From positions 30,282-94,281 of the forward strand of contig CAZUFD010000003.1 in the NCBI GenBank assembly GCA_964619625.1: a DNA stretch of 64,000 bases. Direction: 5' to 3'. The notes beneath the pieces were generated by a model. It did not search any database and was not told the DNA's origin. It saw nothing but the letters and a program-made list of their open reading frames with translations. This DNA comes from an uncultured Gammaproteobacteria bacterium (GTDB taxonomy: Bacteria; Patescibacteriota; Patescibacteriia; Magasanikbacterales; GWA2-37-8). Of this stretch, positions 6,686-43,925 are shown in pieces. The translations under genes and the position numbers were made by a program. Within the stretch, counting starts at the first letter, position 1. Each line of letters opens with the position of its first letter.

Positions 6686-7651
6686 TTACTTTTTACCGCT
6701 GTGAAATTTTTTGTGGATATCGCGCAAGCGCGGATTGGTGACGTGCGTGTAGATTTGAGTTGTAACAATATTTTTATGGCCCAGAAGTTCTTGCACGGAA
6801 CGCATATCTGCGCCTTGTTGCAGTAGATCCGTGGCAAAGCTGTGGCGCAATGTATGCGGCGTGGCATCTATGGGCAATCCGGCCATGGATCTGTATTTGC
6901 TTACCATCCGCTCTATGGAACGAGCGGTTAAACGGTTGTCATTTTCTTCATCGCCACCTTTTTTATAGTTTATAAATAGCGGTTGGTGCATGTCTTTTCT
7001 AGTTTTAAGATACTCTCCCAACCATTTTAAGGCTCGATCGGAGAAATAAATTGTACGGGTTGAACCGCCTTTTCCAGAAATGGTTAGTTCTTCATCGGAA
7101 TATTTTCCCTTTTTTAAGTTTTCCACGTTAAAGCTTCTTACATTGAGTGAAGTTAATTCGGAGACACGCATGCCGGTAGAGAACAGGATTTCTAAAATTG
7201 CCCGATCACGCAAGCCGTCCGGCTTGGAAAGGTCGGGCATGTTCATTAATTTTTCTACTTGTTCAAATTTAAGAAATTTAATTGCCTTATCTTTATCCGT
7301 AAGTTTTGGCAGCTTTATTTTTTCCGATGGCAGGGAAATGATATCTTTTTCAGCAAAATAGGCGAGGAGATTTCGTAAAGCGATCAGATAATAATTTTGC
7401 GTTGTTTTTTTATTAAAATTGCCCCGCTTATCCTTTTTTCGGGATAAAGATACGCGATAATTCCAGATATGTTCCGGGGTAAGTTCATGGGGTTTTAATG
7501 AGCCTAAATTTGATTCTTGGAGCCATTTGGTAAAGGTTTTGAGAAAGTTGTGGTAATTGCGGGTAGAAATAGGGGAGAGGCCCTTTTCAATTTCGCAGTA
7601 TTCCAAAAAAGTGGGGATGTGGAAGGTGATGGGTTGATTGGATTTGTGCAT
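6686..7651 (-). CDS. tyrosine site-specific recombinase (XerC/XerD-family integrase)
   Basis: C-terminal catalytic motifs HTLRHSFATDLLQQGADMRSVQELLGHKNIVTTQIYTHV; N-terminal SAM-like core-binding domain. Confidence 0.85.
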   Translation of the reverse strand: MHKSNQPITFHIPTFLEYCEIEKGLSPISTRNYHNFLKTFTKWLQESNLGSLKPHELTPEHIWNYRVSLSRKKDKRGNFNKKTTQNYYLIALRNLLAYFAEKDIISLPSEKIKLPKLTDKDKAIKFLKFEQVEKLMNMPDLSKPDGLRDRAILEILFSTGMRVSELTSLNVRSFNVENLKKGKYSDEELTISGKGGSTRTIYFSDRALKWLGEYLKTRKDMHQPLFINYKKGGDEENDNRLTARSIERMVSKYRSMAGLPIDATPHTLRHSFATDLLQQGADMRSVQELLGHKNIVTTQIYTHVTNPRLRDIHKKFHSGKK

Positions 7652-7862: not shown

Positions 7863-7872
7863 GGAGCTATAT

Positions 7873-7900
7873 TTGACATAATTATTTTATATGTTAATCT
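7873..7900 (+). promoter_or_regulatory. sigma70-like promoter (TTGACA -35, 16-nt spacer, TAATCT -10)
   Basis: Perfect -35 hexamer 7873-7878 upstream of GC-rich ORF X1. Confidence 0.45.
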
Positions 7901-7939
7901 TTGTATTTAAGACAAAAAAACACCACCAGGGAGGCATCC

Positions 7940-8317
7940 ATGAATTGGCGCGAAGTTGCAAGCCGTGATGATGTGGTGGGCGGGGAGATTGAGACCCAAG
8001 AAGGGGAGTTCATCTTCCGCGGCCCGATCACATCTGTAGAAGTTCGTGATGACGGCCTGGTCTATTTCCAGGTTGCCTGGGCAGCCCAGAAGCCCATCAG
8101 CATGGAAGGCGGATGGGTGAAGCATGAGGCCACAAGCTTCGTGGTGAGCGCACGTGTTTCGATAGAAGATATCGGTGAAGGCAAACTTCACTTCCGAACT
8201 TCGTTTGCGGAGTCCGCAACCATCTTCCTAAAGGGGAGTGGTAACAAACTGAGTCCACGCAATGTTCGTGGTCTGCGGGTTTGTAGAAGTCACAGAAGAC
8301 ATGCCAAGGCTTCTTGA
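7940..8317 (+). CDS. GC-rich small protein, family X copy 1 (hypothetical, 125 aa)
   Basis: GGGAGG SD 5 nt before ATG 7940; about 60% GC versus AT-rich surroundings; weak similarity to 9744-10097 (MNWREV/MKWKKV N-termini; W.K...S...ED motif). Confidence 0.6.
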   Translation: MNWREVASRDDVVGGEIETQEGEFIFRGPITSVEVRDDGLVYFQVAWAAQKPISMEGGWVKHEATSFVVSARVSIEDIGEGKLHFRTSFAESATIFLKGSGNKLSPRNVRGLRVCRSHRRHAKAS

Positions 8318-8391
8318 GAGGGGGAAATCAGTAAGGCCGTCCAAATTGCTTTGATTATAAAAGTTATAGTTAAAGCAATGACGGTCTTAAT

Positions 8392-8419
8392 AAAATACAC
8401 CTTTAATGAGGTGTATTTT
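8392..8419. terminator. bidirectional intrinsic terminator hairpin (AAAATACACCT...AGGTGTATTTT)
   Basis: 11-bp perfect stem between convergent X1 and Y1 genes, flanked by T/A runs. Confidence 0.5.
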
Positions 8420-8564
8420 ATTATTTAAAATTGCAAAACCACCGCCCCGAACTCATCTTTGCAGATAAAATCGGAAACGGTGGTTGAAAGAATCCTTGAT
8501 CGGCATCACTTGTTCCATAGATCAAATGTCCGAATAACTAAGACTCTAGTTGGTTACTCTGGTG

Positions 8565-8873
8565 CTACTCCTCGGCCTGGATAGCGTCCAGCGAACCGAA
8601 AAGTCTGGCGATGAAGAGATCTTCGGCAGCTCCACTGAAGTGCTGAGAAAGTTGGATCGTGATGGTGCAATCGGCGCGTCCCCGCCAGTCTCCGTGGTTG
8701 GCCACGGAGGTGAGCAGTTCGTGGTCCTCAATCGAGGCCGGCGCCAGGTAGTTCTCGGTCATCCGAAGCAGTTCTCTGACAGCGCCGGTTGCGCCGTATT
8801 TGAACTGCAGTCTCAACCTACGACTGCCGTTGCGCGCCTTCTTCAGTTCGACAGACATTTGCTCTCTCATCAT
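8565..8873 (-). CDS. GC-rich small protein, family Y copy 1 (hypothetical, 102 aa)
   Basis: GGAGG SD 5 nt before ATGATG start at 8873; TTGACC-17-TACCAT promoter on minus strand about 8928-8956; paralog of 9424-9732 and 47997-48308. Confidence 0.65.
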   Translation of the reverse strand: MMREQMSVELKKARNGSRRLRLQFKYGATGAVRELLRMTENYLAPASIEDHELLTSVANHGDWRGRADCTITIQLSQHFSGAAEDLFIARLFGSLDAIQAEE

Positions 8874-9027
8874 ACACACCTCCGAGGTGGGATGGAATTG
8901 TTTGTGCCGTGAACAAAGTAGCATGGTACCCTACTTTTAGCCCCAGGTCAATTAAATATATCAAATCTTTAGTTTATTTTTAGGAAAAATTTATTATAGT
9001 TAGTGTATAGTAAATCTTAACTATAAT

Positions 9028-9306
9028 ATGAAAATAAAGTTTTATTTAGTATTTTTCTGTCTGTTAATTTTGTTAGGCGCTGGCTGTAAAAAAGAAGAAT
9101 GGCAAGGATTTTATTATCCAAACGGCTGTCTTTCGTGCATGGAAGATTATATCTATAGCCCAACGCTTTCTTCAGTGGAAGAATGCCATAACTGGGCACA
9201 GGAAATAAAGAAAGAGCGGGGGGATAACCCAACCGATCAATATGAATGTGGTTTAAATTGTAGGGCCAAAGGTATTTTGCATGTTTGCAAGGAAACGGTA
9301 GATTAA
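9028..9306 (+). CDS. small Cys-rich lipoprotein (92 aa)
   Basis: Signal peptide with lipobox LLGAGC; AT-rich codon usage (host-like); TATAAT at about 9021. Confidence 0.55.
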   Translation: MKIKFYLVFFCLLILLGAGCKKEEWQGFYYPNGCLSCMEDYIYSPTLSSVEECHNWAQEIKKERGDNPTDQYECGLNCRAKGILHVCKETVD

Positions 9307-9373
9307 GTAAAAATTTTACTATCCGCCTGCTCTAGCAAGTCGTTTTTTAGTACTCAAATAGCGGAATAGATAA

Positions 9374-9401
9374 TTGACAATAATAATTAATGTGTTAGTC
9401 T
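9374..9401 (+). promoter_or_regulatory. sigma70-like promoter (TTGACA -35, 16-nt spacer, TAGTCT -10)
   Basis: Perfect -35 at 9374-9379; same architecture as promoter at 7873. Confidence 0.4.
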
Positions 9402-9423
9402 TATGTACCAGGAGGAAGATTCC

Positions 9424-9732
9424 ATGAAAGAGAAAGCTGCCGAAGTCCTTGGACAGGCTCTGGTGGGTACGCGGACGCTCAAGCTGACGTTCAAGCGAAC
9501 AGCTCCAGCAATTGTCTTCAGGCATCTGGATTCAATGTGGGGCAGAGGACTGTTGTTCCTCTCCAGCGGTAATCGAGTGCGACTCAAGATGCTTCTGGCC
9601 AAGGGTGCCGATTGGGGAGGGGATGAGAAGCGAGTTCTGGAGCTTACCCTTACCGTGGAATTCACGGAACAAAGCCGGGGTTGGTTTATTCGCCAGGTTT
9701 CCGATGGCCTGGACGATATCCAGGCTGTGTGA
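9424..9732 (+). CDS. GC-rich small protein, family Y copy 2 (hypothetical, 102 aa)
   Basis: AGGAGG SD 9410-9415; conserved blocks GTRTLKLTFKRTAPAIV, ADWGGDE, LTLTVEF, LDDIQA shared with Y1 and Y3. Confidence 0.7.
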   Translation: MKEKAAEVLGQALVGTRTLKLTFKRTAPAIVFRHLDSMWGRGLLFLSSGNRVRLKMLLAKGADWGGDEKRVLELTLTVEFTEQSRGWFIRQVSDGLDDIQAV

Positions 9733-9743
9733 GAGGAGTTCTT

Positions 9744-10097
9744 ATGAAATGGAAAAAGGTTGATCGGGTAAATAAAGGGATTACCATAACCGGAAATCAT
9801 GGTGTCCCGCCAACAAGATGGTGGAACCACTGGTGGCTTGCACTCTTCGGCTGGAAGACAATTGTCACGTTCCGTCTTCCTGACGAGGTAGTAGCAAGCG
9901 GGTACCATGTGGGCTTCACGGCCAAAGACGGCAAGTCATGGTGCAAGCGCGCAGTCGCGCACGATAAGTTCTTTAGCATGAAAATCGGGTACGAGGATTG
10001 CAAGTTCTGGGTCAAAACAGCCCGCAATCCCGAACAGCCCGATACGGGTGGCGCAGTGATTTTGCCCGAGCTCATCAGCAGAGGGCCTCTTCACTAA
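9744..10097 (+). CDS. GC-rich small protein, family X copy 2 (hypothetical, 117 aa, Trp-rich N-terminus)
   Basis: GAGGAG SD; ATG 11 nt after Y2 stop (operon); WWNHWWLALFGW segment. Confidence 0.65.
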   Translation: MKWKKVDRVNKGITITGNHGVPPTRWWNHWWLALFGWKTIVTFRLPDEVVASGYHVGFTAKDGKSWCKRAVAHDKFFSMKIGYEDCKFWVKTARNPEQPDTGGAVILPELISRGPLH

Positions 10098-10169
10098 GAT
10101 GCGGCCATCTTTTCCAAGACGTACCCGCCGCAAGGCGTTTTGGAAATAAAAAACTTGCGGTTTGAACAA

Positions 10170-10202
10170 AAATAACCTTCTCATGAAGGTTATTTTTGTT
10201 TT
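10170..10202 (+). terminator. intrinsic terminator (AAATAACCTTC-TCAT-GAAGGTTATTT + TTGTTTT)
   Basis: 11-bp stem plus T-run downstream of X2. Confidence 0.55.
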
Positions 10203-33448: not shown

Positions 33449-33796
33449 CTATAATCGCTCTTCCGGCTTCTTTTCTTTCTTGCCGGCATCGTTTAATCTC
33501 TTGTACTGCGCGCCGTAATTTTTTGCTTTTTTGTGAATGATTTTGGCGGAAATTAGGGCTGCAAGGACAAATGCCAAAATGGTAAAAAGAGGTGCGGTGT
33601 TGTATTTTTTATCAATATACTGGCCAATCAGCACTAGGATTACAACCGGTACGGCTATGGAGGCGCCAAAATCACCTATAATTCGCAGAGCCAATATATA
33701 GTAATCTCGACTCGCTGGTTTCGGTAAATTTTCTTCGGGCATATAAAATGCACTTAAGAACGCGACTATTTTACATATATTTTTTTCTAAAGTCAA
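33449..33796 (-). CDS. AtpZ/AtpI-like small membrane protein at head of atp operon
   Basis: Two TM helices, basic C-terminus; operon position. Confidence 0.5.
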   Translation of the reverse strand: MTLEKNICKIVAFLSAFYMPEENLPKPASRDYYILALRIIGDFGASIAVPVVILVLIGQYIDKKYNTAPLFTILAFVLAALISAKIIHKKAKNYGAQYKRLNDAGKKEKKPEERL

Positions 33797-33930
33797 GCAT
33801 TTTTACAGGTGGATTGTTGTTGATAAAACTGCAGCTACAGAACCCAGCGGCCACACTCTCTAGATTTATGGCTGTTTTTGTTTATTTTGGCTAATTTTAA
33901 ACTAAAAATAGATAAAATTTTGATAAAGTA

Positions 33931-33959
33931 TTGACAAAACACGAACTTATTGTTACTAT
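33931..33959 (+). promoter_or_regulatory. sigma70 promoter TTGACA-17-TACTAT
   Basis: Perfect -35, 17-nt spacer, 5/6 -10; about 80-nt leader with RBS in hairpin loop (AACGGC GAAAGGA GCCGTT). Confidence 0.55.
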
Positions 33960-34041
33960 TGCTCGTTATGTAGAAGCGGCACGCAGGGGGTGTGCAACTT
34001 CTCATAATAGACCCTAAACGGCGAAAGGAGCCGTTTTCCCG

Positions 34042-34392
34042 ATGACCGACTACCAGAACCCTGATCCCGAACTTTTTGGTCTGGAGATCGCAGTCCATTT
34101 GGGCTGGCTCGCCGGTACCGAAGCCCCTCCACTAGAAGACGAGGGGGCAGAGATCACGATCAGCGAGTTTTCCGACGCTGATCTGTTCAACTTGGAGGTC
34201 GAACACGCAGTCGACACTGCCGTTGTCGTGCCAGAGCCCGCTGGGCTGAAGGCGGCAACTGCGGAACCGACCAGCGTGGATGATGGTTGGGAGATGGAAA
34301 ACACGGGTGACAGCCAGGAGAATACCCAGGTTGATCGCCCGCGTCACATGATCATTACGGCAGAAGGTCCCCGTCTGGTCCACCACGAGTAG
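34042..34392 (+). CDS. GC-rich highly acidic protein (116 aa, hypothetical)
   Basis: AAAGGAG SD; Asp/Glu/Pro-rich; about 60% GC. Confidence 0.6.
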   Translation: MTDYQNPDPELFGLEIAVHLGWLAGTEAPPLEDEGAEITISEFSDADLFNLEVEHAVDTAVVVPEPAGLKAATAEPTSVDDGWEMENTGDSQENTQVDRPRHMIITAEGPRLVHHE

Positions 34393-34417
34393 TTGGGTGT
34401 GCCGGCGCGAAGCATCT

Positions 34418-34481
34418 GTTCGCCGCCGCACTACCGCTTTCAAGATAAAAAAATTTGTCTTGTAAAGCGGTGGCGGCGAAC
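34418..34481. repeat. 64-nt imperfect inverted repeat (GTTCGCCGCC...ACCGCTTT / AAAGCGGT...GGCGGCGAAC) around an A-rich loop
   Basis: 10 + 8 bp stems with 5-nt bulge; directly after stop of 34042 gene; no T-run. Confidence 0.5.
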
Positions 34482-34508
34482 TTCAAAAAAACAGATATAA
34501 CAAAAAAT

Positions 34509-34530
34509 CCGCACGTGAGCGGGTTTTTTG
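34509..34530 (+). terminator. intrinsic terminator CCGCACGTGAGCGG + GTTTTTTG
   Basis: 4-bp GC stem, 6-nt loop, T6. Confidence 0.6.
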
Positions 34531-34583
34531 TTATATTGACCATTTACTTAAAATATGGTACGAATTATTTAGGAGGGATCAAC

Positions 34584-34700
34584 ATGAATCTTGCCGAGGA
34601 ATTGATTGGATCTGCCCTGGAAATCTTCCTGAACTGGATGGCGATCATGTACCGTATCCGGGAACTCTTCCGGGTTGACCTCTTCCCCTTGTCCTCCTAG
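34584..34700 (+). CDS. candidate 38-aa peptide
   Basis: AGGAGGG SD 6 nt before ATG; MNLAEELIGSALEIFLNWMAIMYRIRELFRVDLFPLSS; TTGACC at 34536. Confidence 0.4.
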   Translation: MNLAEELIGSALEIFLNWMAIMYRIRELFRVDLFPLSS

Positions 34701-34792
34701 TTAGTACCTTGTATCGGGCTTCACGCCCAGTACGTCGTCCTAGAGAGGGCAGCAACCAGCGGTGTCACACACTGTTGTGACGCCGCAACACA

Positions 34793-34825
34793 AAAACAGC
34801 TTTCAACGTAAGGCTGTTTTTGTTT
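34793..34825 (+). terminator. intrinsic terminator (AAACAGC...GCTGTTT + TTGTTTT)
   Basis: 7-bp stem plus T-run. Confidence 0.6.
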
Positions 34826-34882
34826 TCAACAATTGACCCATTTTATATAAGTATGCTAGTTTACATACAAGGAGGTAGTGGT

Positions 34883-35143
34883 ATGAAGAAGGATGCAAAT
34901 TTCTTTGAGAACTTGGTGGATTGGATCAAGGAGTCGCTGCGTACGTTGCAGCTAGACGAGGTGTTGGAAGATCTTGCTTACTGGGTGGGAAAGTTCGTTA
35001 TTGAGGTGAGCAAAGAGCTTACTCCTGAAGGTTTGCAGAAGTTCTTCAGCGGTTTGAGCGGCGGGTATATCAATACGATGGACCTAGACATCGATCTGGA
35101 TGGAGTGCAACCCGATGAACTTCTCTGCAAGAAAAGCAGGTAG
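34883..35143 (+). CDS. GC-moderate small protein (86 aa, hypothetical)
   Basis: AAGGAGG SD; TATAAG -10 at 34845-34850. Confidence 0.55.
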   Translation: MKKDANFFENLVDWIKESLRTLQLDEVLEDLAYWVGKFVIEVSKELTPEGLQKFFSGLSGGYINTMDLDIDLDGVQPDELLCKKSR

Positions 35144-35164
35144 CGCCTCTACTGCGCAAGGTCT

Positions 35165-35205
35165 TCGCCTCGCCCGAAAATTCGGAGCGAGGCAATGTAT
35201 TTTTA
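35165..35205 (+). terminator. intrinsic terminator hairpin (GCCTCGCCCGAA..TTCGGAGCGAGGC) + T-rich tail
   Basis: Long GC stem after stop of 34883 gene. Confidence 0.5.
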
Positions 35206-35251
35206 TAGGAAAAATGGATTACGTTTAATTTTTAAATATTGCTAGCACCCC

Positions 35252-35280
35252 TTGACAAAAGGGGTGTTTTGGTGTATAAT
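35252..35280 (+). promoter_or_regulatory. perfect consensus sigma70 promoter TTGACA-17-TATAAT
   Basis: Exact consensus hexamers with 17-nt spacer; -35 embedded in palindrome CACCCCTTGACAAAAGGGGTG. Confidence 0.7.
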
Positions 35281-35409
35281 GTCGGGTTGCTCTTTTAATA
35301 GACAGTCTTATTTGCCCCGGGGCAAGAATGCGTCAAATTAGCGCTTTCTCGCCCCTCGGCAACCAAGATTTCGCCGAGACAACCATTTTCCGTGAGAGGA
35401 TCGAAACAA

Positions 35410-35820
35410 ATGAAGAACTTCCGCACCCAGTTCACCTCCATCGCCAGCAACCTGATCATCCTGATCATCGCGCTCGCCTTCGTCCTCACGGGCGGGACGA
35501 CCACGGTCAACTCGGCCTACGCCGACGGCTCCGCGATCACCGTCCGCAAGAACGGCAAGAGTTTCCCGCTCACGCAGAAGCACCGCAACGCGATCAGCGA
35601 GATCGAGCACATCATGCGCCGGTCGGGCGACAACCAGAAGCAGCCGACGAAGTTCTTGTACTCCTGCAACCAGGGGAACGAGAAGATCCGGCAGATCGTC
35701 GCCACCTTCCCCGCGGATGAGCAGTTCATCATGTCGGACGAGTGGGACGGCGAGTGCTTCTTCTACATCCCGCCGACCCGGAAGGTCAACAAGACGCCGG
35801 TGATGGTCGCCAAGAAGTAG
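35410..35820 (+). CDS. secreted small protein with signal peptide (136 aa), extreme GC3 codon usage
   Basis: GAGAGGA SD; signal peptide ...LIIALAFVLTGGTTTVNSAYA; about 68% GC with GC3-saturated codons unlike host. Confidence 0.65.
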   Translation: MKNFRTQFTSIASNLIILIIALAFVLTGGTTTVNSAYADGSAITVRKNGKSFPLTQKHRNAISEIEHIMRRSGDNQKQPTKFLYSCNQGNEKIRQIVATFPADEQFIMSDEWDGECFFYIPPTRKVNKTPVMVAKK

Positions 35821-35873
35821 CAACACCCTGGTCGTGTTCGCGCCCCAAGCGCGGCCACGGCCTACGGCCCAAC

Positions 35874-35910
35874 GAACCCCGCACGCAAGTGTCGGGGTTC
35901 AGTATTTTTA
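35874..35910 (+). terminator. intrinsic terminator GAACCCCG...CGGGGTTC + T-run
   Basis: 8-bp GC stem followed by AGTATTTTTA. Confidence 0.65.
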
Positions 35911-36762
35911 AAGAGAAATATTAAATAACTTTTTAGCGTTTTCGGTCGTCGCAGCCTCGGCTTCGGCAAAAGATATTTGTTTTACTTCGGCAATTTTTTT
36001 AATTGTTTCTCGCACCATCGGCGGTTCGCATCTTTGGCCCCTATACGGAATCGGCGCCAAGTATGGCGCATCGGTTTCCACGACAATTTTTTCTAAAGGA
36101 CAATTTTTTACCACTTCAAGCAAATCAAATTGAAGTTGCGGAGAATTTTTCTTTGGCGGAAATGTTATAACACCGGTAAAACCAATATGCAGCCCCAATT
36201 CCAAATACTGCTGGGCAAAATGCCAGTTGCTGGTATAACAATGAACCGTGCCGCGAATTATTTGCTGCCCGTACTGGGCCATAAGCTGCTTTAACAGTTC
36301 TATCATCTCGGCATGCGCTTCGCGTACATGAAGAACCAAAGCCACGTTTAATTCTTGCGCTAATTTATATTGCAAAGCAAACATCTGTTTTTGTTTTTCC
36401 AACACCTCTTCCCTGGTTTTGTTTTCGGGCAATCTGTACAAATCCAAACCGCACTCCCCTACGGCAATCACTTTTTTACTTTGCCCCAAATTTTTATAAT
36501 ACTCATAATCAAACTCTTCTTCGCGCGACAAAAATTTACTTTCCTCTTCGTCAATATGAGTGGAAAACAAATGTATGGGATGAAGTCCGATGCTCGCATA
36601 CGTAAACGGAAACTTTTCAGCCATTTCCACTCCGGCCCGACTGGTATCTTTTTGCGTGCCAACCAAATTTAAAATCATATTCTCCTGGCCGCATTTTTTT
36701 ACGACTGCTTCGGCGTCATTTCTAAAACCATTAAACTGCACATGGCAATGGGTATCAAACAT
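35908..36762 (-). CDS. tatD: TatD-family metal-dependent DNase/hydrolase
   Basis: MFDTHCH N-terminal motif and TIM-barrel His/Asp/Glu residues. Confidence 0.8.
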   Translation of the reverse strand: MFDTHCHVQFNGFRNDAEAVVKKCGQENMILNLVGTQKDTSRAGVEMAEKFPFTYASIGLHPIHLFSTHIDEEESKFLSREEEFDYEYYKNLGQSKKVIAVGECGLDLYRLPENKTREEVLEKQKQMFALQYKLAQELNVALVLHVREAHAEMIELLKQLMAQYGQQIIRGTVHCYTSNWHFAQQYLELGLHIGFTGVITFPPKKNSPQLQFDLLEVVKNCPLEKIVVETDAPYLAPIPYRGQRCEPPMVRETIKKIAEVKQISFAEAEAATTENAKKLFNISL

Positions 36763-43589: not shown

Positions 43590-43925
43590 ATGACCAGAAA
43601 CCCATCTGTGGGTGTCTTTAGAAGAATGTGGTGGTGCATTCGGTGCCGGAGAGCGTTGCCTAACGGCGGCCCATGCTCCCGCTGCAGAGGGATGCAGTGC
43701 ATTGGGTGCAAGGGGGCGCCTGACGGTCAATGCTCTCGCTGTAGAGGAAACTTCTGCATTTCTTGCTTTGAAGCGCATGCGCAAGTGAACCATGCGCCAA
43801 ACATGGTGATGACAGGGGTCAGTTGTGTGGAATGCGGAAATGAACCGGATGGCCAGTGTGCCCACTGCCCGGCAATCCTGTGCGAAGGCGAGGAATGCCG
43901 AAAAACCCACGAAGGCAGGCATTAG
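43590..43925 (+). CDS. GC-rich Cys-rich protein with three tandem CxxC-x(8-10)-CxxC zinc-ribbon units (111 aa)
   Basis: GAAGGAG SD 6 nt before ATG; repeats CIRCRRALPNGGPCSRCRG / CIGCKGAPDGQCSRCRG / CVECGNEPDGQCAHC; TTGACT at 43534. Confidence 0.6.
   Translation: MTRNPSVGVFRRMWWCIRCRRALPNGGPCSRCRGMQCIGCKGAPDGQCSRCRGNFCISCFEAHAQVNHAPNMVMTGVSCVECGNEPDGQCAHCPAILCEGEECRKTHEGRH

Follow-up and report, generated by a model that had tools for sequence, protein, structure and literature searches.

Here we present an analysis of g4, a small gene at positions 35410..35820 of a 64-kb stretch of DNA (the window: 64,000 nucleotides of contig CAZUFD010000003.1, assembly GCA_964619625.1) from an uncultured bacterium of the Magasanikbacterales, whose gene content in this window is typical of an ultra-small bacterium of the candidate phyla radiation (CPR). 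Nearly every codon of g4 ends in G or C, in a window with an overall GC content of 40.7%, and the gene is the last of four small units in a 2.1-kb insertion. On balance we favour the view that g4 is a recently acquired, moron-like orphan cassette, which came from a GC-rich, unsampled source and arrived shortly before its two carriers diverged. The second carrier, designated here as L001, is a groundwater Candidatus Magasanikbacteria metagenome-assembled genome from public data (GCA_016182085.1, contig JACOYB010000009.1).

In the scheme that we propose, the insertion would consist of four autonomous units, each with a promoter, an open reading frame (ORF) and a terminator. The last of these, g4, would be transcribed from its own consensus sigma-70 promoter, through a leader of ~129 nt with two hairpins, to a hairpin-U terminator. 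Its 136-aa precursor would carry a Sec-type signal peptide, probably cut after the motif A-Y-A, so that a basic 98-aa protein containing two cysteines would be released to the exterior. The saturation of g4 silent sites with G and C would not be a product of the mutation and selection regime of the host itself; instead, the coding and 3' parts of the cassette would have come laterally, most likely from an unsampled GC-rich gene pool, and the silent sites would only just have begun to decay, from C to T. The elements of the cassette are as follows (RBS, ribosome-binding site; UTR, untranslated region; pI, isoelectric point):

35246..35266, no strand assigned: palindrome CACCCCTTGACAAAAGGGGTG, enclosing the -35 box
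35252..35280, + strand: g4 promoter, TTGACA-17-TATAAT
35281..35409, + strand: g4 leader, ~129 nt, with hairpin P1 (35319-35354), hairpin P2 (35355-35378, CTCGGC/GCCGAG) and the RBS GAGAGGA (35394-35400)
35410..35820, + strand: g4 ORF, 136 aa and stop codon (TAG)
35410..35523, + strand: predicted g4 signal peptide, 38 codons, ending in A-Y-A (residues 36-38)
35524..35820, + strand: predicted mature domain of g4, 98 aa, pI 9.4, two conserved Cys, followed by the TAG stop
35826..35867, + strand: GC-rich hairpin in the 3' UTR
35874..35910, + strand: g4 intrinsic terminator, hairpin 35874-35900 followed by the T-run AGTATTTTT
35338..35826, - strand: antisense ORF, 162 aa

The case for a foreign origin begins with codon usage. 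The GC content of g4 is 61.1%, somewhat below the figure of about 68% given in a preliminary description of this DNA, and it is spread very unevenly over the codon, with 45.3, 39.4 and 98.5% at the first, second and third positions (GC1, GC2 and GC3). The third positions comprise 78 C, 57 G, 2 T and no A. With the g4 protein sequence held constant, codon frequencies from 45 host ORFs (each >=150 aa) predict 48.6 +/- 5.2 codons ending in G or C; the number found was 129 of the 131 degenerate codons (z = 15.4), as the description had maintained for nearly all third positions. It had also called for a codon index measured against the host, and an index of the codon adaptation type, scaled to the host, came to 0.445 for g4, compared with 0.726 +/- 0.030 for host genes and a host minimum of 0.623. 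Individual choices are equally one-sided (ATC 13/13, AAG 11/11, GTC 6/7, CCG 5/6), and the preference for GTC over GTG, together with the use of CCG, ACG, GCG and CGG, fits the type found in high-GC bacteria. Within the window, GC3 saturation occurs only in the frame of g4 and in its own antisense shadow.

Below the level of the silent sites, the gene looks like its host. The residues F, Y, M, I, N and K make up 0.36 of the g4 protein and G, A, R and P 0.22, compared with 0.32 +/- 0.04 and 0.21 +/- 0.04 for host proteins. Since the composition of the protein matches that of the host, the label "Streptomyces-like" that had been given to the gene holds for its synonymous sites and not for its amino acids, and no homologue was found in high-GC organisms. 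Proteins from genomes of >65% GC are usually rich in Gly, Ala, Arg and Pro and poor in Lys, Asn, Ile and Phe, and GC1 in such genomes is usually near 70%. Partial decoupling of coding from silent-site composition does occur in nature, because an ORF on a marine contig of 65% GC (L073) combines a GC1 of.54 and a GC2 of.41 with a GC3 of.93 and an F+Y+M+I+N+K fraction of.30. The literature search turned up no paper on GC3 or codon-usage anomalies in CPR bacteria or Magasanikbacteria.

The stretch 35410-35820 is a genuine protein-coding gene of the + strand. Its RBS and its ATG are kept in L001, whereas an in-frame GTG upstream is not; its 3-base periodicity is extreme; and the coding sequences in the two genomes differ in length by 33 and 9 nt, both multiples of three. 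It might be argued instead that no sense-strand gene exists and that the real product is the antisense ORF or a non-coding RNA, the more so as the antisense ORF is the longer of the two. Also, the g4 product (136 aa, or 142 aa if started at the upstream GTG) is missing from a collection of ~15 billion proteins that does contain its neighbours g1 and g3; g4 was therefore apparently not called in the annotation of the source record. We regard this alternative as hardly credible. The antisense frame lies exactly in phase with the sense codons and stays open because no g4 codon ends in A, and in L001 a single TCA codon interrupts it, which rules out a conserved antisense gene and agrees with its earlier description as a GC-shadow. 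Furthermore, every signal, from the promoter and RBS to the signal peptide and terminator, belongs to the + strand, and the indels are in frame for the + strand ORF. For annotation, g4 exemplifies an authentic gene which standard gene callers may overlook or place on the wrong strand, where the shadow ORF is the longer one.

The signals around the gene are equally well defined. The promoter matches both sigma-70 hexamers exactly (12/12), with a 17-nt spacer, just as had been noted earlier; L001 matches at 11/12 positions, its -10 box being TATACT. This exact sequence, TTGACA-17-TATAAT, occurs once in the window, and if one mismatch is allowed there are 6 matches where 0.72 would be expected, so the host genome evidently uses promoters of this type. 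The palindrome reported around the -35 box was recovered as well, with arms CACCCCTT-GACAA-AAGGGGTG; it is present as a single copy in the window and is 100% conserved in L001, and it may serve as an operator or as a second, insulating terminator. Folding of the g4 leader gave z scores of -3.4 and -3.8, and a consensus fold of the window and L001 leaders has 26 pairs, of which 4, in P1, are compensatory; the long hairpin of P1 and its loop are kept in L001 despite the change in sequence. No Rfam family matched anywhere in the window at the gathering threshold, or in the g4 leader at E <= 1, and a covariance model built from the two leaders found only the window and L001 copies in the 326 kb searched.

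Downstream of the gene, the GC content of the 3' UTR is 70% (window) and 68% (L001), and in L001 a hairpin of other sequence occupies the same place as the one at 35826..35867. The terminator of L001 likewise has a different hairpin, followed by TTTATTTTT. In the window, the T-run of the g4 terminator overlaps the stop codon (35908-35910) of the convergent gene tatD. As a side observation, two segments of the upstream gene g3, within 34980-35055, are 82-83% complementary to the start region of g4 (35404-35431). A pairing between the g3 coding sequence and the g4 start was rejected as a candidate: 18/22 positions are complementary in the window (shuffle maximum 15) and 13/22 in L001, so that the pairing is not conserved. 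The complementarity is probably fortuitous or specific to the signal-peptide allele of the window.

The g4 product is predicted from its sequence to be a small basic protein exported by the Sec pathway, with a signal peptide of the signal peptidase I type; its gene would form a strong autonomous expression unit. The putative signal peptide has a charged start (K2 and R5), a hydrophobic core, LIILIIALAFVLTGG (Kyte-Doolittle 2.8), and the A-Y-A motif that the preliminary description had singled out. With A-Y-A at residues 36-38, the mature part would have 98 aa and not the 110 aa estimated before. No Cys occurs before residue 86, and hence there is no lipobox cysteine at the cleavage site. The L001 orthologue shows the same signal-peptide layout in a different sequence, MNTLSKIVTILTLVALILAMAVNPAYA.

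By every comparison made, g4 is an orphan. A word-indexed search of 5.8 billion protein clusters found as its sole homologue the L001 protein (122 aa, 78% identity), and a HMMER profile search of 1.84 billion representatives added to this protein only three repeat-protein artefacts (sushi, ankyrin and a nematode polyprotein). The proposed homology check on the product yielded a sister protein and no family or PDB profile match above threshold. In Pfam, the only match was to SurA_N_3, at 18.8 bits and under the cut-off of 27.2, and it reflects the N-terminal hydrophobic segment of g4. NCBIfam, PADLOC and a PDB sequence profile search gave no match. In PHROGs, the two orthologues matched just one family, 25836, marginally (E 0.002-0.0035) and with no function assigned to it, which we take as a lead and not as evidence. 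With only two sequences to draw on, structure prediction failed: AlphaFold2 models reached a mean pLDDT (predicted local distance difference test) of 52.5 (full protein) and 60.9 (mature domain), and neither yielded an assignable fold. Additionally, tblastn of g4 against 72,556 plasmids and 50,697 phage records gave no match. The neighbouring genes g1 and g3 are orphans like g4.

The second line of evidence is the insertion itself, in which g4 occupies the last position before tatD:

33797..35907, + strand: island (the 2.1-kb insertion) of four stand-alone small genes, between the promoter of the atp operon and the tatD stop codon
33931..33959, + strand: g1 promoter-like site, TTGACA-17-TACTAT with TG before the -10 box, identical in L001
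34042..34392, + strand: g1, 116 aa, acidic, pI 4.1, orphan, GC3 0.65
34495..34536, no strand assigned: g1/g2 terminator, A-tract/hairpin/T-tract (z = -7.1; in L001 z = -10.0, with a stem core of other sequence)
34584..34700, + strand: g2, hydrophobic/amphipathic peptide of 38 aa, MNLAEELIGSALEIFLNWMAIMYRIRELFRVDLFPLSS, with AGGAGG and a TTGACC -35-like box upstream
34787..34826, no strand assigned: g2/g3 hairpin terminator
34883..35143, + strand: g3, 86 aa, acidic, pI 4.4, orphan
35167..35210, + strand: g3 terminator, hairpin and T-run
33449..33796, - strand: atpI-like gene of the F-type ATPase operon, flanking the island
35908..36762, - strand: tatD, flanking the island, followed by a CvpA-family gene and metG

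Each of the genes g1 to g4 comes with a separate -35/-10-like site, RBS and hairpin-T terminator. All four deviate from the host in the same direction: their host-scaled codon indices are 0.45-0.54, under the host minimum, and their GC3 values are 0.63-0.99, with z = 15.4 for g4 and 4.4-5.4 for g1-g3. At its left edge, the island abuts a promoter-like site of the atp operon (33796-33768, - strand). Relative to L001, the ratio of non-synonymous to synonymous substitution rates (dN/dS) is 0.83 for g1, whose indels are in frame, and 0.48 for g3.

The same island, with all four genes, lies at the same site in L001, whose contig is collinear with the window from 25.3 to 42.3 kb. Per 100 nt, identity between the window and L001 is 93-99% throughout the interval from 31.9 to 37.9 kb, island included. 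A more distant relative, L003 (OBEQ012054152.1), was recovered through its TatD protein; its TatD is 69% and its AtpI 54% identical to those of the window. In L003 the gene order is cvpA-tatD-atpI, with tatD and atpI 34 nt apart and nothing inserted between them. Because L003 is without it, we interpret the 2.1 kb as an insertion in the lineage leading to both carriers; a deletion in L003 is less likely. The comparison with sibling genomes suggested in the preliminary description thus gave presence in the closer relative and absence in the more distant one. Of the recent acquisition from a high-GC donor that it had envisaged, the foreign silent sites and the absence of the insertion from L003 are borne out; a Streptomyces or actinobacterial donor is not supported. 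Patescibacteria in general often carry genomic islands and laterally transferred genes, and members of the group living in groundwater are reported to acquire such genes chiefly from other Patescibacteria, with Actinomycetota a rare source (PMC12455944).

High-GC codons spelling out a host-like protein, with a textbook promoter and terminators, would also suit a codon-optimised expression cassette, and an assembly chimera, a contaminant or an engineered insert had been proposed as an explanation. The island, however, stands at the same junctions in the independent L001 assembly, where it has diverged naturally, with substitutions, in-frame indels and another signal-peptide sequence. Its flanks are continuous host genes, down to the T-run that overlaps the tatD stop codon, and the plasmid and phage collections gave no match. 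On account of the identical junctions and the ordinary divergence in two independently assembled genomes, we set this explanation aside as extremely improbable.

Some side observations concern the surroundings of this comparison. Outside the 31.9-37.9 kb interval (at 29.8-31.9 kb and beyond 38.0 kb), identity to L001 drops to ~80% per 100 nt in a mosaic pattern, and the dS (synonymous divergence) of metG, at 0.70, exceeds that of the adjacent genes (0.13-0.28), a pattern suggestive of exchange by homologous recombination among the CPR lineages concerned. A long imperfect hairpin (34415-34481), with arms GTTCGCCGCC...GGCGGCGAAC of ~25 bp, lies immediately downstream of the g1 stop and ahead of the g1/g2 terminator; it is kept in L001 and could act as a small RNA or help to stabilise an mRNA. 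The 3' arm of the g2/g3 terminator (34809-34825) recurs at the left edge of the island, where 17 nt at 33867-33883 match it with 94% identity. The copy adjoins an 11-nt indel relative to L001 and could be left over from an earlier cassette or from the process of insertion. The small gene g2 is conserved in L001, with mostly conservative replacements, and has a strong RBS; by analogy, its product may be likened to small membrane peptides, type I toxins for example.

The third line of evidence comes from the silent sites on which the two carriers differ. The last 85 codons of g4 contain 5 non-synonymous and 3 synonymous differences, and all 3 of the latter are C/T pairs (ATC/ATT, GAT/GAC and TGC/TGT). 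Codons ending in A or T number 2 in the window and 5 in L001; none is shared, and 6 of the 7 end in T. On the simplest reading of this very small sample, the ancestral g4 would have had a GC3 of ~100%, with C-to-T decay just starting. The pattern speaks for an arrival only shortly before the two lineages parted, with essentially neutral amelioration since then, and argues against active selection for G and C. Strong synonymous constraint, as might be read from the low dS, was considered and rejected, as the 97% identity of the mature domain is the ordinary background of the 31.9-37.9 kb interval.

Against this orderly picture stand four sharply bounded patches that cannot be aligned with L001, amid a background of ~95% identity:

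34507-34530, no strand assigned: stem core of the g1/g2 terminator
35299-35355, + strand: leader hairpin P1
35401-35500, + strand: charged and hydrophobic parts of the signal peptide, with a length difference of 11 codons
35831-35900, + strand: 3' UTR with the terminator; a GC-rich hairpin and then the terminator hairpin in both genomes

With ~5% divergence next door and a silent-site regime that leans toward AT, the divergence of these patches was not built up in place. In the signal peptide, both alleles are nevertheless saturated, with 29/29 and 17/18 degenerate codons ending in G or C. We see two possibilities: the patches were re-imported from a pool of diverged GC-rich alleles, or some force holds the silent G and C in place. 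Template switching in quasi-palindromes could explain the fast turnover of the hairpins, but not that of the signal peptide. A diversity-generating retroelement and conversion by a paralogue were rejected, as the window holds no second copy of any island segment and the differences are not adenine-specific.

Several findings have to be set against a recent arrival from a GC-rich source. In both genomes the unalignable patches stay GC3-saturated or GC-rich, or keep their hairpin, and this is where a single old acquisition followed by neutral decay fails. The amino-acid composition of g4 and its GC1 and GC2 (45 and 39%) are host-like and not GC-shifted. With a GC3 of only 0.63-0.74 in g1-g3, the island is not compositionally uniform. 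It contains no integrase or recombinase among its ORFs and has no target duplication, flanking direct repeats or terminal inverted repeats, and no tRNA genes occur in the window. Finally, no donor homologue was found in ~15 billion proteins, in one genome each of 185,579 species, or in metagenome contigs, viral contigs, plasmids and phages.

The same findings lend some weight to a different explanation, in which g4 is native to the CPR lineage and its silent G and C are actively held in place. Possible causes are selection acting on the mRNA (for stability, for the pacing of translation, or through tRNAs and their modifications) and strongly GC-biased gene conversion at a local recombination hot spot. 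A native gene would readily account for an amino-acid composition indistinguishable from that of the host, for a promoter, RBS and most of a leader that are host-like in sequence, and for homologue searches in which no donor appeared. Moreover, the two signal-peptide alleles are G/C-ending although they cannot be aligned, and the 3' UTRs, which differ in sequence, share both a GC content of 68-70% and a two-hairpin layout. On the other side, the codons that g4 prefers, such as AAG, GAG and CAG, are minor ones in the host (17-35% of their families). The synonymous differences in the conserved part run away from G/C in 3 of 3 cases, with no swap of G/C for G/C, which, in this tiny sample, resembles unopposed decay. 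A dN/dS of ~0.5-0.8 indicates weak protein constraint, so biased conversion should have shifted the amino acids as well. The GC3 pattern appears in no other gene of the window and, among 80 related TatD loci, in no low-GC locus other than L001 and L002. To our knowledge, codon selection to a GC3 of 98.5% against an AT-leaning background is without precedent even in the most highly expressed bacterial genes. Taken together, we consider a native origin unlikely, if still worth serious attention.

Another way to accommodate the patches is to suppose that the silent sites of g4 are renewed or maintained, by repeated exchange with a persistent GC-rich partner or by an unusually strong force acting on synonymous sites, be it selection or biased conversion. 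This rests on the signal peptide and the 3' UTR, each of which has diverged between the two carriers and yet stays G/C-saturated in surroundings that are ~95% identical. We think it rather improbable. If repeated exchange did take place, the GC-rich partner might be an unknown host organism, or an element shared with that host, and the codon signature would then be a molecular pointer to the host of the Magasanikbacteria. Weighing all this, we retain a recent arrival of g4 from a GC-rich source as our preferred reading.

Two other places in the window recall the style of the island and are given here as side observations. One is another GC-rich pocket, made up of small stand-alone ORFs, at 7870-10200, beside the ORF 6686..7651 (- strand), which, judged from its sequence, looks like a tyrosine recombinase of the XerC/D type. 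This pocket has a TTGACA promoter-like site near 7874 and comprises:

7941..8317, + strand: ORF
~8568..8873, - strand: ORF ending in LDAIQAEE
~9425..9732, + strand: ORF ending in LDDIQAV
~9745..10097, + strand: further ORF

The second and third of these look like diverged paralogues in opposite orientation. GC3 in the pocket is 0.55-0.69, so none of its ORFs is saturated, and it lies 3-6 standard deviations above the host in 3/5 ORFs, two of the tests having used out-of-frame coordinates. The other place, a pocket of 56% GC, holds the gene 43590..43925 (+ strand), which encodes a very Cys-rich protein of 111 aa with many CxxC pairs. This gene comes with a -35-like box of its own, with GGAG as its RBS and with a hairpin-T terminator downstream, in the cassette style of the island.

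At present, the phenomenon extends to one orphan gene in two genomes. Nevertheless, the combination of host-like amino acids with anti-host codons, kept in diverged alleles, makes g4 a test case for models of amelioration, synonymous selection and biased conversion. For CPR bacteria, a life in attachment to other cells is generally assumed, and orphan proteins that are small and secreted would be candidates for a role at that interface. In addition, the silent-site signature could point to partners in DNA exchange, if a donor were found in the same groundwater.

The pairing of a predicted basic, secreted protein with small acidic cytoplasmic neighbours invites comparison with barnase-barstar and with bacteriocin-immunity systems, in which small secreted basic toxins are accompanied by acidic cytoplasmic inhibitors. 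As in barnase-barstar, g4 would encode a basic protein of ~100 aa with a signal peptide (pI 9.4), close to g3 (pI 4.4) and g1 (pI 4.1), which are acidic and have no signal peptide; it is a guess from this analogy that g4 is an effector or toxin with a partner. Unlike those pairs, the island genes are separate transcription units and show no sequence or fold similarity to such families. A second analogy is with bldA and the TTA codon in Streptomyces, where a rare codon gates expression. Since g4 is written in host-minor codons, its translation could similarly depend on tRNA supply. The difference is that nearly every codon of g4 is of the minor type, as opposed to a single rare codon, and that the window carries no tRNA genes.

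The closest parallels, however, are with acquired DNA. Lawrence and Ochman reportedly proposed the amelioration model for laterally acquired genes, and the island resembles laterally acquired islets in its strong compositional deviation, its patchy distribution among relatives and its early signs of decay toward host composition. It departs from typical islets in that the deviation of g4 is confined to silent sites and that mobility genes, a tRNA target, direct repeats and a known donor are lacking. Morons, as described for the phages HK97 and HK022, combine a deviating GC content with a promoter and terminator of their own (review PMC3594210). Like these, g1-g4 are compact units, each equipped with a promoter-like site, an RBS, a short ORF and a hairpin-T terminator; they sit between conserved genes, differ from these neighbours in base composition, and represent extra DNA compared with a relative that lacks them. 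Unlike phage morons, they lie outside any prophage, as four tandem units in a CPR chromosome, flanked by atpI/atpB on one side and tatD/cvpA/metG on the other. The comparison with phages yielded no PHROG family with a function and no match to viral contigs, only the marginal hit to family 25836 noted above. Acquired orphan islets are already known as a class, and g4 is a new orphan, compositionally foreign, moron-like cassette.

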